Counted from the stretch's first letter, positions 17,587 to 45,514 are shown. The stretch is DNA of 64,000 nucleotides from an uncultured Actinomycetota bacterium (GCA_963730085.1 CAVSQI010000012.1:14466-78465); one strand, 5' to 3'. The notes: a model not told the origin generated them from the sequence alone. Program-made: numbers and translations.

Positions 17587-18516
17587 ATGCGACTTGGCGT
17601 CCTAGATGTGGGTTCGAACACAGTGCACCTGCTCGTCGTCGATGCCCACCAAGGCGGCAGGCCGCTGCCTGCCTTCTCGCACAAGGCCGAATTGCGGCTG
17701 GGGGAGAACCTGGACGAGTCCAACCGGCTTAGCGATAGCTGCGCGCAGCGGCTTCGGGACTTCGTGCAGGAAGCCCTGCAAATCGCCGAAGACAAAGGCG
17801 TGAGCGAAATAGTGGCGTTCGCGACGTCGGCCGTCCGCGACGCGGCGAATGCGGACGAGCTGCTGGCCCAGATCGAGGCCGAAACCAACGTGCCGATCAG
17901 AGTCCTGCCCGGCTCGGACGAGGCCCGGCTGACGTTCCTGGCCGCGAGGCGCTGGTTCGGCTGGTCCTCGGGCCGGCTCCTCCTGCTCGACATCGGCGGC
18001 GGCTCGCTGGAGATCGCCACCGGCCTTGACGAGGAACCCGAGACGGCCGCGTCGCTGCCACTCGGAGCCGGGCGGCTCACTCGGGACTGGCTGCCAGGCG
18101 ACCCACCGACGGCGGACGCCGTTCGCCGGCTTCGCAGGCACGTCCGCGCCGAGATCGCGACGATGGCCGGCCCGCTGCTACGGAACGGCCCGCCCAATCA
18201 CGCGGTGGCCACCTCCAAGACGTTCCGACAGCTCGCGCGCGCGGCCGGAGCCGCGGCATCCGGCGAGGGTCAATACGTGCGGCGCGTGCTCAAGCACACC
18301 GACGTCATCGCGCTGGCCGAGCGGTTGCCACAGCTCACGAGGGCGGAGCGGGAGGAACTGCCCGGCGTGTCGGTCGGCCGTGCGCACCAGCTCGCGGCCG
18401 GCGCCATGGTCGCGGATGCAGCGATGGACCTGCTCGGCCTACCGGTTCTGGAGATCTGCCCGTGGGCACTGCGCGAGGGCGTCATCCTGCGGCAACTGGA
18501 CCTGCTGCCGTCTTGA
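17587..18516 (+). CDS. Ppx/GppA family phosphatase (exopolyphosphatase-like)
   Basis: Contains [18 protein letters not shown]...[13 protein letters not shown]...[13 protein letters not shown]. Confidence 0.85.
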
Positions 18517-18525
18517 CTGCCGGCG

Positions 18526-18798
18526 CTAGCTGCCGACCTTCGTCGCCTCGGCGAGTATGCCGGTAATGGCGGCGACTGCCTCCGCCGCGTCCGGGCCGGT
18601 CGCGCGCACGGTTACCACCTGTCCGCTGGTCGCGCCGATGCCCATGACGCTCAGCACGCTCTTGGCGTCGGCTGTGCGCTCGGCGGCAGCGAGCTCGATG
18701 GACGACTTGAACCTTGCGGCCGCGATCGCTAGCGATCCGGCCGGCCGGGCGTGCAGGTCACCGGCCAGCGTGATCGACGCCTCAGAGCTTGCGTGCAT
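18526..18798 (-). CDS. HPr-family phosphocarrier domain protein (DhaM HPr module)
   Basis: Contains ITLAGDLHARPAGSLAIAAARFKS...DAKSVLSVMGIGATSGQVVTVRATGPDA. The phospho-His context (LHARPA) is present. The start may lie at 18846. Confidence 0.7.
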   Translation of the reverse strand: MHASSEASITLAGDLHARPAGSLAIAAARFKSSIELAAAERTADAKSVLSVMGIGATSGQVVTVRATGPDAAEAVAAITGILAEATKVGS

Positions 18799-19187
18799 GC
18801 CGTGCCTCTTCGGCCGCGCGGGCAACTGCCTTGACGTCGCCGCCAACGGCGGCTGCGATCGCTGCGGCGACGGCGCCCTCGACGAACGGCGCGTCCGCGA
18901 CGGCGAGCGGATCCGGAACGCCCTCCCCGTCGGCCAGCAGCGCCCGGACCGTCAGGACCGAACTGCCGAGATCCGGCAGCACGACGACGCCCGCGCCACG
19001 ATCGGCCGCAGCGAGCGCCTGGCGGATCTTGCCAATGCTCGTGCCCAGGCCGCCCGTCGTCGGTGCCGCCGGCGGGCACGATGGCAACCTCGCCGCCGCC
19101 GACCTGGCTCGCGAGCTCCGCAGTCCCGGCCGCGAGCGCGGCACTGTGCGACACGAGCACGATCCCCACCCGCTCGACTTCGCTCAT
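18782..19187 (-). CDS. dhaM: dihydroxyacetone kinase phosphotransfer subunit DhaM, EIIA(Man)-like domain (frameshifted near 19053)
   Basis: VGIVLVSHSAALAAGTAELASQV...IVPAGGTDDG is in one frame. GLGTSIGKIRQAL...VVVLPDLGSSVLT is in the next. Confidence 0.7.
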
Positions 19188-19228
19188 GGCCTATCCTGAA
19201 TACTGTTCGACATTACCGAAAGGCCTCC

Positions 19229-20011
19229 ATGATTCAGTCGGTGGAACGGGCCGCGGCGATCCTGACCGCGCTTGGATCGGGGACACCACGGCTGGGCGTG
19301 ACCGAGATCGCCGACCGAGTGGGGCTGGCCAAGCCGACCGTCTACGGGCTGCTGCGGACGCTGGAGAAGCACGACCTCGTCGCGCAGGATCCCGATACGG
19401 GCAAGTACAGCCTCGGGCCCGGCGTGCTCCAGCTGGGCAATGCGTTCCTCGACGGCTCGGAGCTGCGGGCCCGGTCGCTGCTGTGGGCTGAGGCCCTGGC
19501 CCAGCGGGCGGGGGAGGCCGTATGGGTGGCGACACTGTCCGGTTCGCGGGTCATCGTTCTGCACCACGTGTTCCGCCCCGACAACACGGTTCAGATCCTC
19601 GAGGTAGGCGCCGCGATCCCGTGGCATGCGTGCGCGCTCGGCCACGCAATCGCGGCGAACCTGCCGCAGACCAGCTGCGCGCGTCTGCTGGCCGCCGATC
19701 TGACGCCGCTGACCGGCCGGACGAAGACGACCCGGGCCGCACTCAGCCGGGCCCTGGCCCAGGTACGCAAGCAGGGCTACGCGATCGAAGACCAGGAGGC
19801 GACCGTCGGCGACGCCGGCATTGCCGCTCCGATCGTCAACCGTGAAGGCACGGTCGCCGGCTCGATCGGCGTGGTCGGCCCGGCCGAGCGGCTGCTGGCC
19901 GGCGCGGTGCGGGACGAGCTGGCCAGGGCAGTGACCGAGTCGGCCCGCAGCATTTCCCGCGATCTCGGGGCCGGCCGCGGCGGGGGTGCGGCGCTGACGG
20001 CTCTCAGCTGA
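19229..20011 (+). CDS. IclR family transcriptional regulator
   Basis: Contains MIQSVERAAAILTALGSGTPRLGVTEIADRVGLAKPTVYGLLRTLEKHDLV...GYAIEDQEATVGDAGIAAPI. It is the 3' third of the spurious 484-aa ORF 18557..20011. Confidence 0.85.
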   Translation: MIQSVERAAAILTALGSGTPRLGVTEIADRVGLAKPTVYGLLRTLEKHDLVAQDPDTGKYSLGPGVLQLGNAFLDGSELRARSLLWAEALAQRAGEAVWVATLSGSRVIVLHHVFRPDNTVQILEVGAAIPWHACALGHAIAANLPQTSCARLLAADLTPLTGRTKTTRAALSRALAQVRKQGYAIEDQEATVGDAGIAAPIVNREGTVAGSIGVVGPAERLLAGAVRDELARAVTESARSISRDLGAGRGGGAALTALS

Positions 20012-21621
20012 GGTCAGCACCGTGCACCAGCTCCCAGTTTTCCTGCGCCGATGTTGACGTCAGCGCCTTGGCGGCGATGGCCGCGCAGGCTGCGGCGTCG
20101 AGCGTGCCGATCCACTCGCGGACCCGGCTCACGCTGGCGGCGGGCACGCTTACCACCCGGACGCCGAGGCCGATCAGCAGCGGCAGGACCCGTGGGTCCG
20201 CTGCCGAGTCGCCGCAGACCGAGACCGAGATCTTGGCCGCCGCGGCGGCGTCGGTGACGTGCTTGACGAGCTGCAGAACGCGCGGATCGGCGGCGAGGCC
20301 CGGGCCGGCCGACGGATCCAGCCGATCGAGTCCGAGCACCTGCCCGGCCAGATCGTTCGTGCCGATGGAGAAGAAGTCCACGTCGCCGGCGAAACTCTCC
20401 GCCGTGGCAGCCGTCGTCGCCAGTTCGACCATGATCCCGAGCCGGGGCGCCGGCACCGCCAGCTCGGCCGCGATCGCGTCGATGGCGTCCCGTACGGCGG
20501 TGACCTCAGCCAGCGCGCTCACCATCGGGATGAGAATGGCCAGCTCGGCATCCGCGCCGGCGGTAAGCGCCACTCGCAGCTGATCAGCGAGCGCAGCCGG
20601 GTGAGCCAGGAGCTCGGCCAGGCCAGCGTCGGCCCGGCGCCAGAAACGGCGGGACCTTGTCGCCAGAGAAGTCCAGCAGCCGGACCGTTGCCGGGCGTCC
20701 GCGCAGCATCGACAGTATCGGCGCGAGCTGCCGCTCGTGCTGCTCGGCGGTGGGCCACGCGGTCGCACCCGTAAACGGGATCTCCGTCCGCAAAAGCCCG
20801 ACGCCCGCAGCGCCTTCGGCCAGGCCGCGCCGCGTCTCGGCGGCGGAGGCGACATTGCACAAGATCACTATCTGGGAGCCGTCGGCGGTTCGTGCCGCCG
20901 TGGAACCCGGGCGCGGCCCCGTTCCCGTCTTGATCGGGGCGCGCGCCAGGACCTCCGCGCTTGGCTCGACCGTCAGCTCACCGGCGACGCAGTCCAGGAG
21001 CGCTGCCTGGCCGTCAGTCGCGGCCAGGACCGCATCGTCCACGCCGGTGAGCATCGGCACGCCGAGTCCGCGCGCGATGATGGCGGCGTGCGAGCTGGCG
21101 CCGCCCGCTACCGAGACGGCCCCCACCAGGCCGGCATCCGCTAGCTCGATGAGGTCCGCTGCCGCCACTTCGCGACGCACCAGGATGAAGTCCCCGGTCG
21201 GCGGCTCCGGCGTGCCGCCAGCCAGCTGCTCGAGGACGGCTCGCGCGATCTGGCGGACGTCGCCGGCGCGCTCGGCCAGTTCCGGGCTGTCAAGACTGGC
21301 CAGCACCGTGGCCTGTGCCTCGGCGGCCGCCGATACGGCCGTGACCGCGTCGGTTCCGGCCCGGACGGCGTCCACGGCCGGACCGACCAGGACTGGATCT
21401 GCCGCGATGAGGGCCGCAACCGCGACGATGTCCGCCTCCTGCGCTCGGCCCTGAGATCGCAGCTGCCCGGCCAGCGCGTCTCTGTCGGCGGCGACCGCGG
21501 CAAAGGCGGCGGCCACTTCCTCGGCGGTGGCGCCAGCGCGGGCGGTTACGTCCGCAAGGAAGAGGACGCCGACCGCCGTGCCGTCGGAGACGGCCGTTCC
21601 GGGGAATCGCGACGACGTCAT
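20004..21621 (-). CDS. PEP-utilizing Enzyme I-like protein (PtsI/DhaM EI module; frameshifted near 20635)
   Basis: The N-terminal part has GGASSHAAIIARGLGVPMLTG (phospho-His). The C-terminal part, in another frame, has DFFSIGTNDLAGQVLGLDR...VSVCGDSAADP. The start overlaps the dhaL stop. Confidence 0.8.
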
Positions 21622-22253
21622 GTGGCCTGCCGCTGCGCGACCTCGCTCAGCGCGCCCATGATGATCGCGGTGGACGCCGCTCCCGGATCCTCGTGCCCGA
21701 CGCTGCGCGGCCCCAGGTAGCTCGCCCGACCCTTGAGCGCCTGCATCGAGATCGTGGCCTGCGCGCCCGCGGCCGCGGCCGCGGCAGCTGCCGCCAGTGC
21801 GTCTGCGGCATCGGCGCCGTCGGACACCGACTTCTGCAACGCCGCTACGGCCGGTGCCAGGGCGTCGACCATCGTCTTCTCGCCCTCGCGGGCCGCCCCG
21901 AGCTTCTGCACACCGGCGAGCGCGGCCTCCAGGCTCGCGGCCAGCTCGGGCAGGCTGGCGTCGGCGGTGTCACCCAGCGCCTTACCCGCCTGCCGCAGCG
22001 CCATCCCGTACAACGGCCCGGAGGCACCGCCGACCTTCGAGATCAGTGTCGAGCCTGCCAGGATCAGGACTGACCCAGGCGTCGGCGTTGCCGCCTGGTC
22101 CAGCGCCACGGCGATGGCACCGAAACCCCGCGCCAGGTTGATCCCGTGGTCCGCGTCGCCGATGGCGGCGTCCAGCTGGGTGAGGTGGTCGCGCTGCGAC
22201 TCGATGACGGTGCCGGCCTCGGCGAGCCAGGCCCGGAAGAATGCGGCGTCCAT
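21618..22253 (-). CDS. dhaL: dihydroxyacetone kinase subunit DhaL
   Basis: Contains LTQLDAAIGDADHGINLARGF...GGASGPLYG...GASYLG. Confidence 0.9.
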   Translation of the reverse strand: MDAAFFRAWLAEAGTVIESQRDHLTQLDAAIGDADHGINLARGFGAIAVALDQAATPTPGSVLILAGSTLISKVGGASGPLYGMALRQAGKALGDTADASLPELAASLEAALAGVQKLGAAREGEKTMVDALAPAVAALQKSVSDGADAADALAAAAAAAAAGAQATISMQALKGRASYLGPRSVGHEDPGAASTAIIMGALSEVAQRQAT

Positions 22254-32537: not shown

Positions 32538-32854
32538 GCGAGGCGGCTCAGGCTACCGCGGCGGGATGTGGCGCGCCGGCTGGCGGAGCGCCCGTCAAGG
32601 ATGCTGGCAATCAGGCCATCGTTCAGGGCCGGGTGACCAAGGGCGGGGCCCCGGTGCAGGTCGGATACGCACGGTTGCTCAACTCTGGCGGCGAGTTCGT
32701 GGCCGAGGTGCCGCTGGGGGAGGACGGCGGATTTCGGTTCTTCGCGGCGCCAGGTGACTGGACGCTGCGCGTGCTGGCGCCCGGCGGCATAACCGCCGAT
32801 CGAGGCGTGACCGCGGCGATCGGCGAGATCCGGGAGCTGCAGGTCGCCGTCTAG
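32534..32854 (+). CDS. DUF1416 domain-containing protein (SseC-like)
   Basis: 106-aa protein with IVQGRVTKGGAPVQVGYARLLNSGGEFVAEVPLGEDGGFRFFAAPGDWTLRVL. It overlaps the rhodanese stop, as in the cysA-sseC pairs. Confidence 0.8.
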   Translation: MSEAAQATAAGCGAPAGGAPVKDAGNQAIVQGRVTKGGAPVQVGYARLLNSGGEFVAEVPLGEDGGFRFFAAPGDWTLRVLAPGGITADRGVTAAIGEIRELQVAV

Positions 32855-32910
32855 CTGTCGCCGCAGCTTGCGACGCGGCGGCTTGCACGCGGCAGGACAT
32901 TCCCAGGGGA

Positions 32911-32948
32911 GCGGCTGCCCGGTGAACCACCGGGCAGCCGCTTTCTGG
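32911..32948 (+). terminator. intrinsic terminator after the rhodanese-DUF1416 operon
   Basis: GCGGCTGCCCGGTG, loop aac, CACCGGGCAGCCGC, followed by TTTCTGG. Confidence 0.6.
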
Positions 32949-33268
32949 CTGGGCTTACTAGCCATGCGAGGGGCAGCGATAGCGGCGGGCTGTTCCCCTA
33001 CTTGCCACCTGGCCGTCGAGACTTTCAGCCTGTTGGTTCAACTACCGTTCACTCAGCCCGCCTACAAAGGACCTGGTCGGCCGCCACTTATTCGGTCGGT
33101 CCCGGTCACCGAGAGTCAGGGGCGAGGCAGCGTGCTGCGTGGAGCCTACGAGGTGCAGCGGCAAACCTCGCATATTGCATTTCATGTCGCTGGTCGCGCG
33201 ACACCGGCCGACCACCAAGTGGGCCTGACATCCGCCCTGTCTGTACCGCCCACCGCGAAGTAAACGCC

Positions 33269-34393
33269 ATGGGGACCGCGAACGTCGGCTCGCCAGTGGC
33301 GGCAGACGATAGCGACCCAGGGGGACGGGCCGCCAGACACAGCGACGCCACGTCCGTCGACAGCGCCCGGAGCGACCGGACTGCGACCAGCACCGGCCGG
33401 CGCGGCAGCAGCTCACGAGCATCGCGTCCCGGTCGGCCGGGAAACGGCCAGACGAGGGCCGCGAGGTCCGCGGTCAGTGTGCTCGCCGACCGGCTCGCTG
33501 CAGCGCTGGTACACCACGAGCCCGGCTGGCGGTTGCCCCGGCACTCAGCCCTGGCCCGCCGGTACAACGTCAGCACGGCCGAGATAGAAGCGGCAGTCGA
33601 GGAACTTGTGAACCGGCACCTGGTCCGGCGCCTCGCTGACGGCCAGGTATATCGCGCCAGCCCGGCCGAGTACGTCATCGACCTGGAAGGCATTTCAGGC
33701 CTGGCCACTCGCCTAGACGCCATGGGCGCCGAGTTCGCGTGTCGCAGCCGCCAGCTGAGCTGGCGGCTGCCGCCCGAGGACATCAGCTGGGCGCTCCGGA
33801 TGGAAGCCGATCAGCAAGTCTGCGTTGTCAGGTACCTCTGGACCGCCGATGCCGCGCCCGCCGCACTCCTCACCACTTATGTCCCCGGTGACATCGCGTC
33901 CAAGGCCGACAACGGGCTGACGGCTGCGTCTCCGAGTGTCCTGAACCTCTTCAAGCTCGCCGGCGGACCGGGCGCAGTCTCGGCCGACGTCGTGGCGGCG
34001 GACGCTACGGTCGGCCCCGCGTCAGTCGACGCTCCGAGAGTAGGCGCGGTGGCGGCAGGCGCGGCCACGGTAGGCGCGGCCACGGTAGGCGCGGCGACGG
34101 TAGGCGCGGACGGTAGGCGCGGCGACGGTAGGCGCGGCGACGGCGCGGATCTCGAGCTGCAGGCTCCGCCACCGTCGATCGCGCGCAGCCTTCGCCTCGG
34201 CGCCGGCCAGCCGGCCACGATCGTGACGATCCGGTTTGACGACGTTGCCACCGATCGGCCCATCGCCTTGACAATCGCTGTGCTGCGGCCGGAGATGTTC
34301 CGGCTGGTGCTGGAGAGCCCCTTCCATCCGCCGGCGGATTCGGGCAATCTGACAGGTTCGTGGACACGCGCCGTCGAGGGCTGGGAACCTTGA
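33269..34393 (+). CDS. GntR/HutC-like transcriptional regulator with a long disordered N-terminus and an internal tandem repeat
   Basis: The wHTH is LADRLAAALVHHEPGWRLPRHSALARRYNVSTAEIEAAVEELVNRHLVRRLADGQVYRA. A UTRA-like C-terminal half follows (VCVVRYLW...ATIVTIRFDDVATDRPIALTIAVLRPEMFRLV). Confidence 0.55.
   Translation: MGTANVGSPVAADDSDPGGRAARHSDATSVDSARSDRTATSTGRRGSSSRASRPGRPGNGQTRAARSAVSVLADRLAAALVHHEPGWRLPRHSALARRYNVSTAEIEAAVEELVNRHLVRRLADGQVYRASPAEYVIDLEGISGLATRLDAMGAEFACRSRQLSWRLPPEDISWALRMEADQQVCVVRYLWTADAAPAALLTTYVPGDIASKADNGLTAASPSVLNLFKLAGGPGAVSADVVAADATVGPASVDAPRVGAVAAGAATVGAATVGAATVGADGRRGDGRRGDGADLELQAPPPSIARSLRLGAGQPATIVTIRFDDVATDRPIALTIAVLRPEMFRLVLESPFHPPADSGNLTGSWTRAVEGWEP
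34040..34149 (+). repeat. 15-bp tandem repeat (about 7 units, one unit only 13 bp) inside the GntR-like gene
   Basis: The unit is GTAGGCGCGGC(C/G)ACG. It is read as VGAAT x3, then after the 13-bp unit at 34100-34112 as DGRRG x2. Confidence 0.85.
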
Positions 34394-34400
34394 CTCCGAT

Positions 34401-35783
34401 ATGCGCACGAATGTGGGGATGGCCCGTCGCCGGTCGATGCGCTGGCGTCTTGATGACCACCGCGACCCGGGCGTCGGCTTCCGCCCGGGGGAGTTACCCG
34501 CTGGGCTCGCTACCGCGGCGATCGTGGGCCAGCTTCTGTTCGCTCCCGTGATGCTGCTCGGTGCCATGGCGCTGGTCATCGTCGGCCGCGTGTCCCGCTG
34601 GCGCCCAACTTGGCTCGCGGTGACGACGGCCGCCAGCGTCATCTGGTTATTCGCTAGCGGGCTGCTTCCGCCTGTGGCCGCATTCACGGCGGGGTCACAC
34701 CACTTAGCCAGCTTCGTCCTGGCAGCCGCAACCCACCCGCGAATGTTCGCCCATCCTGGTGTGGTGGTCGCGAAGGCGGCCCAGTGGTCGGCGATGGGGC
34801 TGCTCGTTGCGATCGTCGCCGCGTGTGCCGAGGCGTGGCTCGTGCTGTGGCTTGGCTGGTGGCGGCCGGGCGCGCGGTCGGAATCCCGGTGGGTGTGGCG
34901 GCCCGGCCTCGTAGCTGCCGTGCGCCGCCGGATGTCCGCGGCGGCGCTCAGAGCCGGGCACACAGGCACTCGCGACGGGTGCGCCGTCGGCGTCGCGACC
35001 GAGACCGGCAAGCTAGCGAGCTTCACGTGGGCGGAAGCCATGCACGGCGTACTCCTGACGGGCGCAGACCGCGACGTATCGGGCCTCGCGATTACGTGCG
35101 CAGCGCTCAGGCGCCGCAAGACCGTAGTAGTCCTCGGGTGCGCTGGCCTGTGCGCGGATGCTGGCGCGAACGGCGACCGCGATGCCGTGGCTGACCGCGT
35201 GGTCCGGCTCGCACGATCCTTCAACGTTCCTGTCATCGTGGCCGGCGCTGGCTCCGCTGCTGCGGCCATCGGCCGCGCCATCCGCCGCCGGGAGGCCGTC
35301 CTGATCGCCGCACCCACCGGAGCGCAGGACATGGACAAGATCCGATGCGCCGCCGCCGACCTGACCACGGTGCTCAGCGGCCTGCGGGATCTGGGGTTGC
35401 GGGCCGACTGCCTAGCCTGGCTCGACGGTGTCGAGCTCTTGGATCCCGCGAGCGTGCGCGAGTTGCAGGCGCTCGCCCCGCTGACTGGCGTCGGCATGGT
35501 TTTGAGCACGGCGGATTCCGCCGCCGCCGCGCAGCTGGCGGCCACCACCGCCGTGCTAGCCATCGGCCAGCCCGTCGGCATCGACCTCGAGGTCGCCTTG
35601 GCGGCCCGCCTGCGCGATACGGGCGGATGGGCGCCAGATCCAATCTGGCGCCCAATGAAACAACGCCGGCGCGGGGCTCGCCCGGGCGGGGTCACGATGA
35701 TCGCTTCCTCGTCCGGTCTCGGCGGCTCGCCACGCGCCATCACGCACTGCCGACTTCAGCCGATCACGCAGGCAGACTCGTGA
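34401..35783 (+). CDS. polytopic membrane protein with a degenerate coupling-protein/FtsK-like P-loop domain (component A)
   Basis: About 4 N-terminal TM helices. HGVLLTGADRDVSGLAITCAALRRRKTVVVLGCAG stands where a T4CP has H-hhhh-GxTGSGKT...hhhhDpKG. CLAWLDGVELL stands in place of hhhhDE. It starts 7 nt after the regulator stop. Confidence 0.5.
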   Translation: MRTNVGMARRRSMRWRLDDHRDPGVGFRPGELPAGLATAAIVGQLLFAPVMLLGAMALVIVGRVSRWRPTWLAVTTAASVIWLFASGLLPPVAAFTAGSHHLASFVLAAATHPRMFAHPGVVVAKAAQWSAMGLLVAIVAACAEAWLVLWLGWWRPGARSESRWVWRPGLVAAVRRRMSAAALRAGHTGTRDGCAVGVATETGKLASFTWAEAMHGVLLTGADRDVSGLAITCAALRRRKTVVVLGCAGLCADAGANGDRDAVADRVVRLARSFNVPVIVAGAGSAAAAIGRAIRRREAVLIAAPTGAQDMDKIRCAAADLTTVLSGLRDLGLRADCLAWLDGVELLDPASVRELQALAPLTGVGMVLSTADSAAAAQLAATTAVLAIGQPVGIDLEVALAARLRDTGGWAPDPIWRPMKQRRRGARPGGVTMIASSSGLGGSPRAITHCRLQPITQADS

Positions 35784-37789
35784 GCAGCGTGTGGCCACCA
35801 GTAACTCGAGGCCCGACCGCGCCCTGGCCGCCGCCACGCGGGCGGCTCAGGGCCGATCTGATCTACCTCGGCTGGCAGCCGGTCCCGGCCGTCGCCGAGC
35901 CCGTTCCGCCGCTTCGGCTGAAAGCGTCCGCCGAACCCGACGGCGTCAGCGCGGACTGGATCGCAGCCCAGCGTCGCGAATACAGCAGGCTCTCCCGGCC
36001 GAGCAGGGTGGGTGCCGCAGCCAGCGTCACGGTCGCTGGTGGAATCACCGCGGCCTGGCTGACGGGAGTCGTGGTAGGCGCGTTCGTCCCGCTCGGCGCT
36101 GTCGCGGCCGCGTGCGTAGCCGCCTGGTATGCGCATGCCAGCTGGCGCCAACGCAGGGTGCTCGGCGAGCAGCTGCGCGCCGAGGAACTGCGCGTGGCTG
36201 CGTTCGCCGACGCGCAGCGCAACCAGCTGGCGGCCACTGCGGCGCAGCACGCCCGCGAAGCCAGCGCCTGGAAGCAGCGAAGCACGGCGATGCGACTCCA
36301 GCCGCGCTGGTATCCCGTCACGATGCCGACGACGGTGCACCGCATCGATATAGCTGGCGGAACGCTCGCAGGGTGGTCCGCGGTCCTGACGATGATCGCC
36401 GCACCCCGGCTCGCGGCCGGGGCCGAGGTGACGGTGCTGGATCTCACCGAAGGTGGCGTCGCGACCGACCTCCTCGCGGTCGCTCGCGGGGGCGGGGTCG
36501 CTCCGCTCGTCTGGGTATTGCCCGGCGACCTTCCGCAGCTCGACCTCGGCACGCAACTGGCGCCAGACATCCTGGCTGACGTTCTCGCCCAGACCGTCAA
36601 CGCCGCCGATGGCCCAGCCGGCCCGGGCGCAGCCGTTCGGGCCGACCCGGCCGGCGACGCGGCCCTGATCGCAGGCGTCTTCCAGGCGCTCGGCGGCAAC
36701 GCCACGATGCCGCAGCTAATCGCCGCTTTGCGGGCGCTCGGACAGATCGGCGGTCCAGCGGAGCACCTTGGCCGTGGCGGCCTCGCGCACAACCAGCTGG
36801 CTAGCTTGACCAACCTCGCCGGCCGAGCCGCTGGGCACCTCGCCGCCGAACGGGCCTGGGCCATCGAGGCGCGACTGCGCGCACTCGCGGCGCTGGGAAC
36901 GTCGGCCGTGAGCGTGCCAGCCAGTCGGCTGACGGTGGCCTGGCTCGACCGGCGCGCAGCTGTCGTGACCAACGCAGCGATCAGGGCCTATCTGGCGATC
37001 GCGCTGACGGCGGCGCTTCGGCAGGCGCCTGCGGGCACGTTCTGGCAGCGGACGATCTGCCTGCTCGGCGCTGAGCGACTGCCAGGCGGCGTCCTGGACC
37101 GGCTGTGCGACGCCGCCGAAGTCGCGGGCGCCGGGCTCGTCCTTTGTTACCGCTCGATTCCGCCGCACGTGCGGGAGCGGCTTGGCCGCGGCGACGCCGC
37201 GGTGGGATTCATGCGGCTCGGGAACGCTGACGACGCCCGGTTCGCGGCCGAGCACATCGGAACCGAGCATCGGTTCGTCGTGAGCCAGCTAACCGACACC
37301 GTCGGGTCGTCCGTCACCGACACGCTCGGCATGTCTTACACCAGCACCGTCGGCACGGCCGACTCCGTCACCGGCTCGGACTCGGTCACGCAGACTGCTG
37401 GCCGCAGTCGCGGCCGCCGGACCGGCGCCGTCGGGCCGTCGCCGATCGCCGACGTGAGCGGATCGGCCAGCCTGGATACCAGCGCGTCAGCCGCCGTCTG
37501 CGACTCGCGGTCTATCACCGCCGGTATCAGCACCGGCACGTCCTGGGGCTGGACGACGTCTCGTGCCATCGGCGGCACCGACTCGGCGGGCATGACTATG
37601 CAGCGGTCCCGCGAATCGCTCGTCGAGCAGCACGAGCTTCAGCAGCTACCGCAGAGCGCGGTACTGCTGTGCTACCCGGGACCGGGCGGTCGTGAGGTCC
37701 GACTGGCTGATGCCAATCCGGCCATCATCGGGCTGCCGACCGCGACGCTGGCAGCCCGGCCGCCCCTGCGTGCAGTCTGGCCATCGTGA
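35780..37789 (+). CDS. TraG/VirD4-like coupling-protein homolog with eroded Walker motifs (component B)
   Basis: The GTG start overlaps the stop of A (GTGA). It has a two-TM hairpin and a coiled coil. RIDIAGGTLAGWSAVL...EVTVLDLTEG replaces Walker A, and TICLLGAERL replaces Walker B. The C-terminus RLGNADDARFAAEHIGTE, a Ser/Thr/Gly-rich tract, then LPQSAVLLCYPG resembles T4CP tails. Confidence 0.5.
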   Translation: MSSVWPPVTRGPTAPWPPPRGRLRADLIYLGWQPVPAVAEPVPPLRLKASAEPDGVSADWIAAQRREYSRLSRPSRVGAAASVTVAGGITAAWLTGVVVGAFVPLGAVAAACVAAWYAHASWRQRRVLGEQLRAEELRVAAFADAQRNQLAATAAQHAREASAWKQRSTAMRLQPRWYPVTMPTTVHRIDIAGGTLAGWSAVLTMIAAPRLAAGAEVTVLDLTEGGVATDLLAVARGGGVAPLVWVLPGDLPQLDLGTQLAPDILADVLAQTVNAADGPAGPGAAVRADPAGDAALIAGVFQALGGNATMPQLIAALRALGQIGGPAEHLGRGGLAHNQLASLTNLAGRAAGHLAAERAWAIEARLRALAALGTSAVSVPASRLTVAWLDRRAAVVTNAAIRAYLAIALTAALRQAPAGTFWQRTICLLGAERLPGGVLDRLCDAAEVAGAGLVLCYRSIPPHVRERLGRGDAAVGFMRLGNADDARFAAEHIGTEHRFVVSQLTDTVGSSVTDTLGMSYTSTVGTADSVTGSDSVTQTAGRSRGRRTGAVGPSPIADVSGSASLDTSASAAVCDSRSITAGISTGTSWGWTTSRAIGGTDSAGMTMQRSRESLVEQHELQQLPQSAVLLCYPGPGGREVRLADANPAIIGLPTATLAARPPLRAVWPS

Positions 37790-37821
37790 TGGCGCCAAGC
37801 CCGTCTGTCAGGATGTAGTCC

Positions 37822-38652
37822 ATGCTGAGACAGTTCCGCGAGGTGGACGTCTTCACCGACGTGCCGTACCAGGGCAACCCGCTAGCGGTTGTGCTCGGGG
37901 CTGACGGCCTGACCACTGAGCAGATGCAGCGGTTCGCCAACTGGACCAACCTGTCAGAGACCACGTTTGTCCTTGAGCCGAACGCCAGTGCGGCGGATTA
38001 CCGGGTGCGGATCTTCACGCCAAGCCAGGAACTGCCGTTCGCCGGCCATCCGACGCTCGGTACGTGTCATGCCTGGCTGGAAGCTGGTGGCGCACCGCGC
38101 ATCCGCGGAGTGATGATTCAGCAGTGCGAAGCGGGGCTCGTGACCGTCAGCGCCGACGAAGACGGCTTGAAGTTTGGCGCGCCCCCGCTCATCCGCTCGG
38201 GTCCAGTGGATGAGCAGCTCGCCCGGCACATCGCGGAGATACTCGGGGTCAGTCGCGACGAGATCGTCGACGTGCAGTGGGCCGACAATGGCCCGGGCTG
38301 GATCGCCGTACTTCTCGCCAGCGCCGACGCCGTACTCGCGGTCAAGCCTGGGCCGACCGACTTGGATCTCGGCATCGCCGGGGCTTACCCACCCGGTGGG
38401 CCAGCGGCGTTTGAGGTGCGTGCCTTCGTGCCGAAGAACGGCAGCACAGACGAGGATCCCGTCACCGGCAGCCTCAATGCCTCGCTAGCGCAATGGCTGA
38501 TCGCCACCGGCCGCGCCGACCCGCCGTATGTGGTCAGACAAGGAACTGCCCTGGGCCGCCGTGGCCTCGTGCGGATTTCTACCGACGCCGACGGCCAGGT
38601 CTGGGTTGGCGGCGGCACCATCACGTGCGTCTCTGGCACGGTGGACATCTAA
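37822..38652 (+). CDS. PhzF family isomerase
   Basis: Contains MLRQFREVDVFTDVPYQGNPLAVVLGADGLTTEQMQRFANWTNLSETTFV...FAGHPTLGT...EDPVTGSLNASLAQW. Confidence 0.85.
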   Translation: MLRQFREVDVFTDVPYQGNPLAVVLGADGLTTEQMQRFANWTNLSETTFVLEPNASAADYRVRIFTPSQELPFAGHPTLGTCHAWLEAGGAPRIRGVMIQQCEAGLVTVSADEDGLKFGAPPLIRSGPVDEQLARHIAEILGVSRDEIVDVQWADNGPGWIAVLLASADAVLAVKPGPTDLDLGIAGAYPPGGPAAFEVRAFVPKNGSTDEDPVTGSLNASLAQWLIATGRADPPYVVRQGTALGRRGLVRISTDADGQVWVGGGTITCVSGTVDI

Positions 38653-38715
38653 CCGAGTGTCACAATTCCCCGCAATCCGGTAGCACGTCGCCAGCCGGCC
38701 TGGTAAGCACGCAGC

Positions 38716-41700
38716 ATGGCAGCGGAGTCAGGCATCGGTGGCGGCGCGGCCGGGCTCTGGTATCGCGTCCAGGCTGTCAGCCAGCGCAGCCTCGGTGGCG
38801 GCGCCGATGGCGACTATGCCTCGGTGCTGCCTGCTGCCCTGAACGCGGCCCGGCATCGGTTGCCGTTCATCGCTGGCTGGCTGTCGCTGGGTGGCGGCGC
38901 CCCGCTCGAGCTCGTCACTAATGCTGGCCCGCTGCCCGCCCCAGGGCTGCCTGCCCGGGCCCGGACGGCTGACAACGCCGACAACGCCGACGGCGCCGAC
39001 AGAGCCGATGGGGCCGATGGGGCCGCTGATCCCGCCCACAAAGCTGACGCGGGCGCCCTCAGGCCGATAAGCCGCCGAGGCGCAGGCGAACCGTCGGTGG
39101 TGGCACCGGGCCGCGCCGCGGGCGAAGATCTGCTCTTCCCGTGGGGCGCCCGCGGCGTAGTCATCGACAGGAACATGCTCGCCGATCTTGACCAGCTTGT
39201 CTGGGCGCCGTGCCCGGGACGCCAGGTGGCTCTCGGCGCCGATGCCGTCGCGCGAGCCGCGCGAGCCGCTGGCCCGCCGGGACTGGGCCAGCCGACATTG
39301 TTCGAGTCCGCCCTCCAGACGGTGATGGGCAGGCCGTTTGGCTGGCTGATCGTGGCCGATCCGACCGACCTGCTCGATGCGGAAACCGTTGAGCTGCGCA
39401 ACCAGCTGACGGTGCTGCGCCAGTACGAGGACGAGCACGCACGGTTCGACGCCGACCGGATCCAGCGGCGGCTAGGCGAGCTGGACGCTTACCGCGAGGC
39501 CGGCCTGTGGAACGTCCGCGTCCTGGCCGGAGCCGCGACCGAGCAGGAGCTACGGCTGATCGCTCCGGTGCTGGTCGGCGCCGTTGACCTGAGCGCGCAT
39601 CCGTATCGGCTCCGGTGCCCCGACGGTGCCCAGGAGTTCGCCGACGTGCTGGCGGCCAGGACTGCCGACCCGGCGGACGGGTCCGCAGTCCCGTTTGCGG
39701 CTACCGCTGGGGTGCTCGTGGCGCTGACCGGCCTGCCGGAGCGAGAAGTGCCGGGCGTTCGGGTCATGCAACCCGGCTACTTCGACCTGACCAGCGAGAC
39801 GCCCGCCGGGCCGTCCATCGAGCTTGGAACCATCCTGGACGGCCAGGACCGGCCGGTCGGTGCCATGCGGATTCCACTGGCCACGCTCAACCGGCACGCG
39901 CTGGTCGCCGGGGCGACGGGCGCTGGCAAGTCGCAGACGGTGCGCCACGTGCTAGAACAACTGACCGGCGCCGGCGTCAGCTGGCTCGCAATCGAGCCGG
40001 TCAAGTCCGAATACGCCGTCATGGCGGCGCGCCTAGCCGGGACGGCAGAAGGTTCCGGAGTCGCCGCGGGTGGTGGCAGGTCGGTCACCATCATCAACCC
40101 GGCCGACCCGGAGTCGGTGCCGCTGTCGGTCAACCCGCTCGCGCCCGAGCCCGGCTACCCGGTCCAGGCGCATATCGACATGGTCCGCGCGCTGTTCCTG
40201 GCGGCGTTCGATGCCCCGGAGCCGTTCCCGCAGATCATGTCCCAAGCGCTGCAGCGCTGCTATGAGGAGTGCGGCTGGGATCCGCTGACGGGAGCCGGGC
40301 CGAGCCGATGTCGACGTCCCGCCCGCGGTGCCGACGCTGGCCAGGCTCCAGGCGGCGGCGCTCGCTGTGATCGAGGACGTGGGCTACGGCCGGGAACTGC
40401 AGGCCGACATGCGGGGCTTCGTCGACGTTCGGCTCAGGTCGCTACGGACCGGCTCGGCTGGCCGCTTCTTCGAGGGTGGTCACCCGGCGGACATCGCCGC
40501 GCTCCTGGATCGGAACGTGGTCCTCGCGCTCGAGGACGTCGCCAACGACGAGGACAAGGCGTTCGTGATCGGCACCTTGATCATCAGAATGGTCGAGCAC
40601 CTACGCCTGCGGTCGAAGACCGATCCGGCTGACGGCCTCCGGCACGTCGTCGTGCTCGAGGAAGCGCACCGGCTCCTGCGCGCGGGGCGGACGGGCGCGA
40701 GCGCGCACGCCGTGGAACTGTTCGCTGGCTTGCTCGCGGAAATCCGTGCCTACGGCGAAGGCGTCGTGATCGCCGAGCAGATCCCGGCCAAGCTCGTGCC
40801 CGACGCGATCAAGAACACTGCGCTGAAGGTGCTCCACAGGCTGCCGGCGGCTGACGACCGCCAGCTGGTGGGCGCCACCATGAACTTGGACGCCGAGCAG
40901 TCTCGCCAGGTGGTGTCCCTGGCGCCCGGCGAGGCGGCGGTCTTCGCCGATGGCATGGACCGGCCGATGCGGGTCCTGGTCCCGTTCGGTGGTGACCGCG
41001 AGCGCAGCCCGGGCGCCCTGATCAAGAGCGGCAACGCGCCGCTAGCTGGCCGGAGGTCGGCGGCGTGCGGCCGCGGTTGCACGGGCACGCGGCCGTGCAC
41101 GCTCGTCGAGATTCGGGCGGCCGACCTTGTGGCGAGATCGCCGGAGGACGCGTGGCTGCGCGTCTGGACCGAGGTGTACGTGCTGGCGCACCTGGTAAAC
41201 CAGCCCCGGCCGCGGGTGCCGGTGCCGCTGCGGCAGCGTTGGGCAGGCCTCGACGGTCGCCTGCGCGAATGTGCACTCGCGACGGCGATCGACGGCGCCG
41301 CTCTCGGCCGTGGTCAGGCCCTCCGCGAGTCATACGATCCGGCGAAGCTATCGGCGGCGTGTGCCGAATCGGCCACTGCGATGCTCGACGGCGGCAAGGG
41401 CGCCGGCACTCGGCCCGGCACGACGTGGGTGATTCCGCAGCTTCGGTGGCTCCATGAGCTAGAACGCGTCTGCCCGCACGACGGTCCCGCGCCGGATCCT
41501 TTCGCCGCGGCTCCTGCCCTCGACTACGGGCTGCCCGACCTCACCGACCGTGCCGATGTCAAGATCGGCCAGCGTGTCAGCGGCTTGCGTCGGCATCCGC
41601 TGTCGATGGAGGTGACGCGGAACCGGCTCATTGCCTGGACTGCGCTCCTCGGTGAGGACGATCAGCGCGCGTTCATCGAGGACCTCGCGTTCGTCGCCAT

Positions 41701-41860
41701 CGGCGTGAGCCATCGCGGTCAGCTTCGCAAAGCTGCTGGTGAAATGGGAGTGACCGGGTGGCTTGAGGCCGTGCTGTCCTGGCCCCGGCGCTTCATCGTC
41801 GGGTCGGACGACCAGGCGGCCAGTCTCGAGACCCGCGAGCCAGACCCAGTGGCCGGATAG
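38716..41860 (+). CDS. HerA/FtsK-superfamily (DUF87-like) ATPase, about 1040 aa (component C; frameshifted near 40297)
   Basis: RIPLATLNRHALVAGATGAGKSQTVRHVLEQL gives a HerA-type barrel-to-Walker-A transition. Walker B is LRHVVVLEEAHRLL. VVIAEQIPAKL is also present. The N-terminal approximately 420 aa and C-terminal approximately 270 aa have no motif I recognise. Confidence 0.7.
38971..39024 (+). repeat. 9-bp in-frame tandem repeat (6 units, Asp-x-Ala) in the ATPase N-terminal region
   Basis: GACAACGCC GACAACGCC GACGGCGCC GACAGAGCC GATGGGGCC GATGGGGCC encodes DNADNADGADRADGADGA. Confidence 0.85.
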
Positions 41861-41871
41861 CATCGGCCCAC

Positions 41872-43110
41872 ATGAGCAAGCTTCCGCTGCGCGCCCGCCT
41901 CGCGACGTCCCTGAGCGGGGCGGCGGGTCGCGTGTCCCGCATGACTGGCCGTGGCGACGGCTCGGTCATCGGTGGCGTGCTCGGCCTACGGGTCGAGCCT
42001 GAGCTGCTCCGGCTGCTGGCGGCCGATCGCCAGGTGGTGCTCGTCACCGGTACCAACGGCAAGACAACAACCACGCGGCTGATCACGGCCGCACTCGGCG
42101 CGCTCGGTCAGGACGTCGCCAGTAACGCGTTCGGTGCCAACATGGCGGCTGGCCTAGCCTCGGCGCTCGGCCGCTCTCCCGACGCGCCGTACGCCGTCCT
42201 GGAGACCGACGAGCGATACCTGCCAGCTGTCATCGAGGCCACGCACCCTCGGGTCGTGGTGTTGCTCAACCTGAGCCGAGACCAGATGGATCGTGCGGCC
42301 GAGATATGGCTCACGGCCCGGAGGTGGCGGCAAGCGCTCGCCATCGCGGAAGGCTGCGTCGTCGTCGCGAACGCCGACGATCCGCTGATCGCCTGGGCCG
42401 CATCGACGGCTCCCCGGGTGACGTGGGTCGCTGCTGGGCAGCGCTGGCATGAGGATTCCTGGTGCTGCCCCGAGTGCGGGTCGCATCTGCGGCGCGACGA
42501 GCTGGGCTGGCGATGCGGTGAGTGCGGTTTCGCGCGGCCCTCGACTCGATGGGTGCTGAGTGGCGACTCGGTCATCGACGAGTCCGGCCAGATGCGCGAG
42601 CTGGCCCTGGCCCTGCCGGGCCGGGCGAACGCGTCGAACGCGGTGATCGCGCTCGCCGTGGCGAGCCAGTTCGGCGCGACGGTCGACCAGGCACTGCCAC
42701 GCGTGCGCAGCGTCAAGTCCGTCGCGGGTCGCTACACCCAGGTGCAGCGGAACGGCAAGCTTGTCCGGCTGCTGCTGGCCAAGAACCCGGCCGGCTGGCT
42801 CGAGGCGTTCGACGTGCTCGCGCCGATCCCGGCGCCGGTCCTGCTCGCCGTCAACGCCCAGACGCCCGATGGCAAGGACACGTCGTGGCTGTGGGACGTC
42901 GACTATCGAGTGCTCATTGGCCGGCCTGTGTACGTCACCGGGGAACGCCGGATCGACCTTGCAGTCCGGCTGGAAGCAGATCAGGTTCCGTTCGAGCTTG
43001 TCGACGGCATCGACGATGCCGTCGGCCGGGTCATCGGCGGTGAACTTGACGTCATCGCCAATTACACGGCCTTTCAGCAGATCCGGGCAATAGTTGGCCG
43101 GACCGAGTGA
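41872..43110 (+). CDS. murT: lipid II isoglutaminyl synthase subunit MurT (Mur ligase family)
   Basis: Contains VVLVTGTNGKTTTTRLI, a Cys4 ribbon CCPECG...CGECG, and a DUF1727-like C-terminus DGKDTSWLWDVDY. gatD follows. Confidence 0.85.
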   Translation: MSKLPLRARLATSLSGAAGRVSRMTGRGDGSVIGGVLGLRVEPELLRLLAADRQVVLVTGTNGKTTTTRLITAALGALGQDVASNAFGANMAAGLASALGRSPDAPYAVLETDERYLPAVIEATHPRVVVLLNLSRDQMDRAAEIWLTARRWRQALAIAEGCVVVANADDPLIAWAASTAPRVTWVAAGQRWHEDSWCCPECGSHLRRDELGWRCGECGFARPSTRWVLSGDSVIDESGQMRELALALPGRANASNAVIALAVASQFGATVDQALPRVRSVKSVAGRYTQVQRNGKLVRLLLAKNPAGWLEAFDVLAPIPAPVLLAVNAQTPDGKDTSWLWDVDYRVLIGRPVYVTGERRIDLAVRLEADQVPFELVDGIDDAVGRVIGGELDVIANYTAFQQIRAIVGRTE

Positions 43111-43128: not shown

Positions 43129-43882
43129 ATGACCGAGCGCGTAGGCCGCCACGCCGCCGCCCACGGCCGGAGCAGCGCGCTCCGGCTCGTCTGGGTGTAT
43201 CCAGACCTGCTGAGCACGTACGGCGACCGCGGCAACTTGCTCGTGCTGACCCGCCGCGCCAGGCTTCGCGGTATCGAGGTCGAGGCCATCGAGGTGAACT
43301 CGGACCAGCCGGTTCCTCGCCAGGGCGATATCTACCTGCTCGGCGGCGGCGAGGACCTGCCACAGATCCTCGCTGCTAACAGGCTTCGTAACGACGGAGG
43401 CCTGGCGGCGGCCGCGCAGCAGGGTGCCGTCGTCTTCGCCGTCTGCGCGGGTTACCAGGTCATCGGCCGGACGTTCGGTGGCGTCGAGGGAGAGCCGGTC
43501 GATGGGCTGGACGTCCTGGACATCAGCAGCGGTCGGGGTGACAGGCGTGGCGTCGGCGAGCTGGTCGCCGACGTCGATCCGGCCCTGAGCGTGCCACGTT
43601 TCACCGGCTTTGAGAATCATCAGGGCGTGACGCAGGTCGGTCCGGCGGCCCGGCCGCTCGCGCAGGTCACGCTTGGCGTCGGCAACGGCGACGGAACCGA
43701 GGGCGCGTACGCGGGCAAGATACTCGGCACGTACATGCACGGTCCGGCGCTCGCGCGCAACCCTGGCCTGGCCGACCTGCTGCTCAGCTGGGCGGCCGGG
43801 CAGCCTGGCGCCGCTGGATCCAGATGCCGAAGAGTGGGCGAGCCAGCTGCGGGCCGAGCGGCTCGCGGCAGTCGGCGGGTAG
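43129..43882 (+). CDS. gatD: lipid II isoglutaminyl synthase glutaminase subunit GatD (frameshifted near 43803)
   Basis: Contains YPDLLSTYGDRGN...YLLGGGED...VFAVCAGYQVIG...GFENHQG...TYMHGPALARNP. The C-terminus LAPLDPDAEEWASQLRAERLAAVGG continues in the next frame. Confidence 0.8.
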
Positions 43883-45047: not shown

Positions 45048-45514
45048 GGGGCTGCTGGCCCGGCGATCGAACCGCGGCGCGCCCGAACAAGAAGAAGCCC
45101 CCGGGCTTTTCTCGCGCCAGGCCAGCCACGGCCCGATCGGATCGATCGCACCATGAACTAAGGCCCACCGCGGGGACCGGCTGGACAGGCCGGTCGGCCC
45201 GGGGGTCCGGTGTCTGCCGTGAATTCGCCGGCCTCCGCCCTGACCAACCCGCCATGCACGGGCAGCAGCCAATGGGGCCACCATCCGATAAGCAGGACCA
45301 GTCAGCTCGATCGAGCGGCCGGTGATGCGCTCGCACGGGGATAGCCGCGCTAAGGCGCTTCACGCAGGCGGCGGCTAGCGGACAGCCACCTCGCAAGTCC
45401 GACATCTATGCATACTGTTGGACCACCTCCTTTCCTGCGTTAGGCGAAACGCTACGTCACGTCGGCTGCTGCGGGCAAGCGTGTTATGCGCTGGGCGTCA
45501 TTAGACTCAGGAGC

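Follow-up and report, generated by a model that had tools for sequence, protein, structure and literature searches.

We analysed a 64,000-nt stretch of DNA (one strand) from an uncultured Actinomycetota bacterium (GCA_963730085.1 CAVSQI010000012.1:14466-78465), referred to below as the window, and focused on a compact block of five same-strand genes within it. On the plus strand, the block encodes a putative GntR/HutC-type regulator (33269-34393), two putative membrane proteins that we call A (34401-35783) and B (35780-37789), a PhzF-family isomerase-like protein (37822-38652) and a large ATPase, C (38716-41860). Successive genes are joined by a gap of 7 nt, a GTGA overlap between A and B at 35780-35783, and gaps of 32 nt and 63 nt, and murT starts 11 nt past the last stop codon of the block at 41860. 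A first-pass annotation of the same DNA had reported these genes, junctions and the gap to murT, and our open reading frame (ORF) listing, translation and measurement agree with it. The reading developed below is that B and C would constitute an undescribed variant of a kind of machine already known, the FtsK/HerA-superfamily membrane machines that are associated with conflict systems.

By its motifs and profile matches, C is an active HerA-clade ATPase, predicted to be cytosolic. Its Walker A (GATGAGKS, 39910-39933) and Walker B (VVVLEEAH, 40646-40669) had already been recognised as canonical HerA-type motifs, and both HerA_C (39.5 to 40.6 bits, cutoff 22) and DUF87 (24 to 25 bits, cutoff 23.2) matched above the curated Pfam cutoffs. 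The C family comprises 2322 clusters at 50% identity (E ≤ 1e-30), and in 34 diverse members of it Walker A and the EEAH of Walker B show no or almost no variation. Compared with the PDB, the C profile matched a solved HerA (9x1l) at E 5.7e-14 and VirB4 at E 6.5e-3. NCBIfam returned partial CedD/HerA matches, and the Pfam match to FtsK_SpoIIIE was at the level of the P-loop only and below cutoff. In PADLOC, C was hit only by generic HerA models and by mad8 (E 1.3e-18), which cover parts of the ATPase core; the mad8 match spans residues 394-756 of C and most of the 314-position model. Beyond this core, the protein of approximately 1050 aa carries an extra N-terminal region of about 370 aa and a C-terminal domain of about 270 aa with four cysteines. 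The precomputed annotation of C is PF27615 (DUF8350), which by the order of the hits probably denotes this C-terminal domain. The cysteines, a Cx3Cx5C at 41066-41098 and a fourth within 41264-41281 (residues 787, 791, 797 and 855 of P0001, the intact protein introduced below), are kept in 28 to 30 of the 34 members and form a possible zinc or iron-sulfur site, and hence a possible redox or metal switch. C resembles the HerA ATPases of HerA-NurA, of Sir2-HerA and DUF4297-HerA, and of TdpAB in its HerA_C/DUF87 core with intact Walker motifs; it departs from them in the two additional regions, in having a membrane pseudo-ATPase as its partner, and in that its relatives have leader-bearing polymorphic toxins and immunity genes downstream. 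No NurA nuclease (Mre11/Rad50 context) was found among the neighbours of C in the window or in L002, a locus whose C is 77% identical, and no Sir2 or DUF4297 effector lies beside C, which also has no full-length PADLOC HerA match. Close to its N-terminus, C has an acidic stretch rich in Ala, Asp and Gly, encoded by a 9-nt repeat array at 38971-39025 that differs by one 9-nt unit from L001, the near-identical contig described next.

In the window, C is not the single gene that the first-pass annotation described, but two overlapping ORFs. The length of the interval 38716-41860, 3145 nt, is not divisible by 3, and the interval reads 38716-40632 in one frame and 40328-41860 in another. The N-terminal 531 codons (38716-40299, plus strand, frame 1) hold the acidic repeat segment, an N-domain and Walker A, with 39.5 bits to HerA_C, 25 bits to DUF87 and 98.9% identity to residues 1-531 of P0001. 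The C-terminal 520 codons (40298-41860, plus strand, frame 2) hold Walker B, the Cys cluster and probably the DUF8350 C-terminal domain, as indicated by the partial NCBIfam CedD/HerA matches, the comparison of the profile with the PDB and the precomputed PF27615 assignment. Alignment with L001, a European Nucleotide Archive contig that is 98.7% identical, located a single extra G at 40297 (GCCGGGC in the window, GCCGGC in L001), and L001 codes for an intact C protein of 1050 aa, P0001. Five of the 11 genes in the 10.4 kb common to both (C, gatD and genes for DsrE-like, THAP4-like and Pro_dh-like proteins) are split in the window and intact in L001, with single-base indels relative to this short-read contig at 40297, 43797-43800, 43974, 44585 and 47145, and also at 45098, 45257 and 45344. 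Because the near-identical L001 is intact and four other genes are broken likewise in the window, the break in C is probably an assembly indel rather than the mark of a pseudogene, and C is probably intact in the organism. A programmed frameshift was rejected, since L001 lacks the extra base and the other genes are broken in the same manner. The indels in C and gatD stand in the same context, GCCGGGC against GCCGGC, and resemble a systematic error of long reads. Single-base indels of this kind create false pseudogenes, and ORF-based readings elsewhere in the window need care.

Component B begins with a transmembrane (TM) hairpin (36020-36133; aa 81-118), followed by a long helix, a TrwB/VirD4-like P-loop fold with a helical insert, a Ser/Thr-rich segment and a small C-terminal beta domain. 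At the site of Walker A it reads GGTLAGWS (36356-36379), with Trp in place of Lys, and the Walker B position reads LLGAER (37055-37078). The altered site is itself conserved: G198 and S200 are invariant and W199 nearly so across homologues, and the form GG[TS]xxxW is kept in copies from Streptomyces, Nocardia and metagenomes, as GGTxxGW in most. None of the 1310 homologues of B has a Pfam domain, B matched no family in Pfam (including T4SS-DNA_transf, TraG-D_C and TrwB_AAD_bind), NCBIfam or PADLOC, and profiles of A and B gave nothing significant against PDB sequences. In the AlphaFold2 (AF2) model of B (mean predicted local distance difference test score, pLDDT, 69), helices 262-369 lie between the core strands, and the best Foldseek match was TrwB (1e9r, E 1.5e-5), followed by HerA, VirB4, Cag-beta and TdpA. 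On this model, which is of moderate confidence, B has the architecture of a type IV coupling protein (T4CP), that is, an N-terminal TM anchor and a nucleotide-binding-domain fold with an all-alpha insert. Apart from the two-helix anchor and the P-loop-fold domain shared with TrwB, VirD4 and TraG, B is unlike T4CPs in lacking their Pfam signature and a working Walker A and B and in its conserved Ser/Thr-rich segment; no relaxase or type IV secretion system (T4SS) partner was found for it at the loci examined, and it is paired with a HerA-clade ATPase instead. As modelled, B is a membrane-anchored protein of FtsK/HerA/T4CP fold without a working P-loop.

A B-like protein on a low-G+C metagenome contig (L093, 4812-6383) lies downstream, not upstream, of a 1210-aa C-like gene and has in common with B the Ser-rich segment and an ELQxL C-terminal motif. 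The NCBIfam model NF033849 (serine-rich protein, 1163 aa) matches the C-terminal half of C (E 9.6e-6) and, weakly, the Ser-rich segment of B (E 0.05). Because of this B-like protein and the NF033849 matches, fused B/C forms may exist. One candidate fusion, P0463 (1483 aa), was rejected, as neither its N-terminus nor the 594-aa gene upstream matched the B profile.

Component A has three or four N-terminal TM helices (34500-34862; TM-like segments at approximately aa 34-65, 71-98 and 121-154) and a predicted cytosolic HerA/FtsK-fold domain from which the P-loop is deleted. At the P-loop site, GVLLTGADRD (35046-35075) corresponds to a beta-strand, a turn of about three residues and a helix. A belongs to no Pfam, NCBIfam or PADLOC family, its 112 homologues are all hypothetical proteins, and matches to its profile hidden Markov model came only from a clade of uncultured metagenome-assembled genomes (MAGs). 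An exact look-up of A and of PhzF in the contig collection gave no record. Foldseek searches with the AF2 model of A (pLDDT 76) returned the Sir2/HerA structure 8woc (E 1.7e-4), the STIV2 B204 packaging ATPase, EssC-D3 and EccC. The N-terminal TM helices and coupling-protein-like domains that had been proposed for A and B were recovered as TM segments and fold matches. The models support A and B, A more weakly, as pseudo-ATPase partners of the same fold class as C. Of the earlier formulation of one active motor with two inactive membrane-anchored paralogs, the live site in C and the dead sites in A and B stand; the word paralogs we dropped, as only the predicted folds are alike.

A genome scan with the C profile gave at least 585 loci, and the best 80 all come from Streptosporangiales (uncultured MAGs, Nonomuraea, Streptosporangium, Planobispora, Planotetraspora, Microbispora and Actinomadura). 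Of the 77 Streptosporangiales loci with sufficient room, 72 have B no more than 3.5 kb upstream of C and 75 have it within 10 kb, and murT-gatD follows C in nearly all Streptosporangiales loci. In the cultured genera C comes directly after B, and B is preceded by a gene on the opposite strand; in a few MAGs unrelated genes stand between B and C. The divergent 253-aa genes upstream of B in Nonomuraea and in S. clavuligerus were compared and are not homologous. The regulator, A and PhzF were found only in one uncultured Streptosporangiaceae clade, that of the window, and are absent from the loci of cultured genera. Within this clade, regulator, A and B occur in the same order in approximately 25 loci, with the A-B start/stop overlap in both the window and L002, and one locus (L030) has the regulator, PhzF and C without A and B. 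PhzF is also missing from several MAG loci; where it is missing, B abuts C or other genes are inserted, and from this distribution we regard PhzF as most likely a passenger gene that entered the B/C junction. B-C pairs also occur outside Streptosporangiales, on S. clavuligerus pSCL4, on plasmids of Nocardia and S. antimycoticus and on metagenome contigs, and there the pair occurs without murT. Judged by gene context, the functional core is the B-C pair, and the five genes are not a unit. The first-pass annotation had asked whether A, B and C travel together with PhzF and the regulator as constant partners: B and C adjoin widely, while A, the regulator and PhzF are confined to one clade. Its concern that the large genes might not co-occur elsewhere is answered for B and C, which are widespread across actinobacteria.

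Gene order, composition and divergence all argue that the block is vertically inherited core DNA and not an island or insertion. The proteins of cultured genera are 54-58% identical to those of the window for C, 60-64% for MurT, 63-69% for GatD and 38-42% for B. No anomaly in G+C content was seen, and base composition is unremarkable. It had been placed at a breakpoint between two core neighbourhoods; this does not hold, as B-C-murT-gatD is itself a conserved neighbourhood. The distance between C and murT is 11 nt in the window and L002 and as a rule about 45-800 nt in cultured genera, and two Actinomadura loci have genes unrelated to either, over 3.7-5.9 kb, in between. These Actinomadura inserts and those in some MAGs were examined as possible toxins and are not toxins. 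No tRNA gene is present in the 64 kb, and no integrase or relaxase was found among the approximately 35 ORFs of the window that were scanned with Pfam, which are not every ORF of the 64 kb. With that scope, the earlier statements that relaxase, integrase and tRNA are lacking and that the locus is not an integrative and conjugative element (ICE) or its actinomycete form (AICE) are upheld. The likeness to the Streptomyces TraB/Spd system is that of an actinobacterial FtsK-superfamily motor working with small membrane proteins; here the FtsK_SpoIIIE match of C is below cutoff, integrase, replication, spd and tRNA features were not found, and the locus is core and syntenic.

Two further arrangements were seen among the relatives. 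In Embleya sp. NBC_00888 (L087, 4637-6391, minus strand), the gene for a genuine TraG/VirD4 coupling protein (TraG-D_C, E 9e-29; T4SS-DNA_transf) and a C-like gene are divergent neighbours in a locus that has no homologue of B, and because of this B and true coupling proteins may be interchangeable partners. An 803-aa ORF in Embleya is by its composition a spurious antisense ORF. Homologous small single-TM proteins of 111 and 149 aa are encoded directly upstream of B in L094 (6768-7103) and L097 (6582-7031); they have no counterpart in the window, where A takes that position.

The main functional clue, which the first-pass annotation had missed, appears to be the linkage of related B-C pairs to toxin and immunity genes. 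Outside Streptosporangiales, the gene after C typically overlaps the C stop codon and encodes a protein with M-[S/A/T]-x-D at its start, then a run of prolines, an extended acidic and disordered region and, at the C-terminus, a toxin domain. Such leader-bearing ORFs lie directly after C-like genes in L084 (11394-12796), L086 (10487-13358), L085 (11544-14385), L090 (9204-10652), L097 (12059-14612), L094 (12027-14879), L100 (5882-7894), L135 (8936-9496) and L168 (6825-8345). The toxin domains were ADPrib_exo_Tox (twice), RelA_SpoT-like (twice, one by motif only), Tox-REase-2, a barnase-type ribonuclease, Zeta_toxin, a calpain-like protease and a GHSLG lipase-like domain. Small unannotated immunity-like genes follow the leader-toxin genes; one RelA_SpoT-like toxin is followed by an HD_4 hydrolase gene and the lipase-like one by an ankyrin-repeat gene. 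In a metagenome scan seeded with accessory C proteins and using a composition criterion, an acidic-leader ORF stood at the C stop in 16 of 31 loci with B and in 1 of 18 without (Fisher p = 0.0014). An earlier and stricter scan, which required the proline run, found leader ORFs nowhere else in approximately 2 Mb of loci. This N-terminus (M-[SAT]-x-D, polyPro, acidic) looks like an undescribed leader class for polymorphic toxins. The features of a polymorphic toxin system are present in the accessory relatives and not in the window. Accessory copies also stand beside other conflict systems: L090 has CHAT/CATRA, the S. antimycoticus plasmid has ABC-three-component and DUF6615, and L094 has an integrase.

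Because C is live, its partners of the same fold class are dead, the co-occurrence of B and C is ancient and toxins are linked to the pair, we read B-C as a two-part FtsK/HerA-superfamily translocation or export machine that is toxin-less in the lineage of the window, and we give this reading a probability of roughly 0.4. C, as a ring motor, would dock on a ring of B in the membrane and drive a polymer through it. The clients would most likely be proteins, made up of a leader and a C-terminal toxin and encoded right after C in the accessory copies with immunity-like genes, and the polyanionic disordered leader is the part that a pump with nucleic-acid-moving relatives could plausibly grip. In the lineage of the window, the pair is fixed upstream of murT-gatD, without a cassette in the 64 kb, and has gained A as a second dead-ATPase membrane partner together with the putative HutC-type regulator and PhzF. 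The toxin-less copy would presumably work in the same way, with a client that could be encoded elsewhere in the genome or be no toxin at all. A bolder and decidedly more tentative version is that B-C forms the core of an undescribed Actinomycetota protein-export pathway, in which a HerA ring seated on a dead coupling-protein-like ring threads toxins by a nucleic-acid-mimicking polyPro/polyanionic leader, the Streptosporangiaceae copy being an ancient domesticated version with a housekeeping client.

On the export reading, B-C would work like a split type VII EccC ATPase or a type IV coupling complex while being a member of neither. In common with EccC and EssC, the block has a membrane anchor, degenerate ATPase-like domains and an active FtsK/HerA-superfamily domain, and the modelled fold of A matches EssC-D3 and EccC. 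The differences are that the dead and live modules are separate proteins here and lack FtsK_SpoIIIE repeats, that no WXG100/LXG substrates or partners of EccB/D/E or EssA/B type were seen at the loci, and that the candidate signal is a polyPro/acidic disordered N-terminus.

Several points tell against an export machine. B is linked to C, and either of them to the leader proteins, through genome context, and BLASTP and hhalign detected no significant similarity between the sequences of A, B and C. Confidence in the models is moderate for both A (pLDDT 76) and B (pLDDT 69), with Foldseek E values of 1e-5 to 1e-4, and C occurs without B nearby in two MAG loci, L011 and L030. The toxin link is extrapolated from relatives that are 40-49% identical in C; there is no leader or toxin ORF in the window and, by the composition criterion, none at the C stop in 81 Streptosporangiales loci. 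To our knowledge, the HerA relatives whose function is known work on DNA or serve as scaffolds for defence effectors and do not export proteins. Pairs of toxin and immunity genes are also consistent with intracellular abortive infection.

An intracellular anti-phage or abortive-infection system is the alternative that fares best, and we regard it as possible but doubtful. C would then scaffold or activate the downstream toxin upon infection, as in Sir2-HerA and DUF4297-HerA, with B as membrane sensor or anchor and the small genes as antitoxins, and the copy in the window would be decayed or repurposed, having no effector. The PADLOC matches of the ATPase core, the presence of the Sir2-HerA and TdpAB defence complexes among the best solved relatives, and the conflict systems beside the accessory copies all fit such a role, as does the pairing of an RSH-like toxin with an HD_4 hydrolase, which resembles toxSAS-antitoxin pairs. 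The known HerA defence systems, however, have no membrane partner, and we know of none with an immunity gene. Long N-terminal leaders are typical of trafficked polymorphic toxins, and domains of the ADPrib_exo_Tox, barnase-type RNase and lipase-like kinds are well known as toxins that are exported. The copy in the window, moreover, is stably inherited beside housekeeping genes across the family at housekeeping-like rates, which is unusual for defence islands, and no other mad genes, Sir2 or DUF4297 are present. The resemblance to MADS is confined to the ATPase core, for which mad8 is the best PADLOC match, and nothing else in the locus matches PADLOC. The first-pass view that the block maps to no named system is borne out by that PADLOC run, and translocation and defence, the two roles that it suggested for the module, are still the appropriate hypotheses.

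A housekeeping role in the envelope of Streptosporangiaceae, tied to murT-gatD, appears unlikely. Here B-C, perhaps with A, would serve the cell wall or septum, for example in polymer movement or the amidation of peptidoglycan precursors, and the toxin-linked copies would be a separate offshoot. The order B-C-murT-gatD in nearly all Streptosporangiales loci, the 11-nt gap in the window and L002, a rate of change similar to that of MurT and GatD, the core chromosomal surroundings and the lack of a toxin cassette in the window and at the C stop of the 81 Streptosporangiales loci would all agree with it. Synteny by itself is weak evidence, however, and the wider gaps in cultured genera, the genes inserted in Actinomadura and the occurrence of the pair without murT elsewhere loosen the tie; A, B and C also contain no peptidoglycan-chemistry domain.

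It is more improbable still that there is no system beyond chance packing, with the regulator, A and PhzF as unrelated neighbours. The absence of these three from all loci of cultured genera, the unrelated inserts taken up by the B/C junction and the retention of regulator, PhzF and C without A and B in L030 speak for it, but the shared order of regulator, A and B in the approximately 25 MAG-clade loci, the A-B overlap and the fold class that A shares with B and C do not fit. Least probable of all is a relic of DNA transfer, derived from a conjugative T4SS or AICE-like module with B as coupling protein and C as VirB4/TraB-like motor: HerA/FtsK motors are DNA pumps, the fold of B is closest to TrwB with VirB4 also among the matches, and the true coupling protein in Embleya stands next to a C-like gene, but B has a dead P-loop and no Pfam T4CP match, the match of C to HerA (5.7e-14) is much stronger than that to VirB4 (6.5e-3), the whole family has the locus in a fixed, syntenic position, and neither the window ORFs scanned nor the syntenic loci examined yielded relaxase, integrase, tRNA, TraB, Spd or VirB genes.

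If the B-C pair indeed moves or activates toxins, it would add a new toxin-handling route in Gram-positive bacteria that are prolific antibiotic producers, beside umbrella toxins and type VII secretion, which exports polymorphic toxins in Gram-positive bacteria. It would also be a case of a DNA-pump family re-used with a permanently dead partner subunit, of interest to pseudo-enzyme biology. The analysis provides a functional handle on two large hypothetical families, the DUF8350 ATPases (more than 2300 clusters at 50% identity) and the GGTxxGW membrane proteins, and predicts a recognisable N-terminal leader that could be used for mining new toxins. Full-text searches returned no description of DUF8350/PF27615, of the B-C pair or of its toxin link, and none was found in the relevant passages of Zhang 2012, Kaur 2020, Iyer 2022 and a 2025 T4SS review. 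Two papers from 2025-26, on exported alarmone synthetases and on Esx defence, proved unrelated.

The remaining genes of the block are those for the regulator and PhzF. The regulator consists of an N-terminal Ser/Arg-rich extension, a putative helix-turn-helix (HTH) domain and a UTRA domain interrupted by a pentapeptide repeat. UTRA was matched in Pfam at E 3.3e-7 (30.6 bits, cutoff 23.8), while the GntR HTH match (E 3e-4, 20.7 bits) fell below its cutoff of 27 and the NCBIfam match to HutC was weak. The repeat is a 15-nt tandem array of about seven copies at 34040-34143 inside UTRA, and encodes (V/A)GAAT-type pentapeptides followed by GDGRR repeats. PhzF is a clear member of its family (Pfam PhzC-PhzF, PF02567, E 2e-54 and 185 bits; TIGR00654, 180 bits).

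Downstream of the block, murT (41872-43110, plus strand; Pfam Mur_ligase_M and MurT_C) encodes a subunit of lipid II isoglutaminyl synthase. The gatD gene follows at 43129-43879 (plus strand); tblastn with the GatD of L001 (250 aa) recovered it in two frames, split at approximately 43797-43800 by a GCCGGGC-type insertion. Genes for a rhodanese and a DUF1416 protein lie directly to the left of the block, and the wider window is core chromosome, with GlnR, an MshD-like GNAT protein, ProC, Rex and HemC/D/B in addition to these two. In L002, four genes for an ABC transporter, whose binding protein is of the phosphate type (Pfam PBP_like_2), lie between DUF1416 and the regulator (L002, 761-4976). 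The corresponding interval of the window (32854-33269) is without these genes, and a paralogous set, 35-50% identical, lies at approximately 10.3-14.0 kb. The G+C content reaches 0.72-0.73 at 18001-22000, compared with about 0.66-0.70 elsewhere in the window, and this region holds a gene for an IclR-family regulator with a long N-terminal extension (18530-20011).

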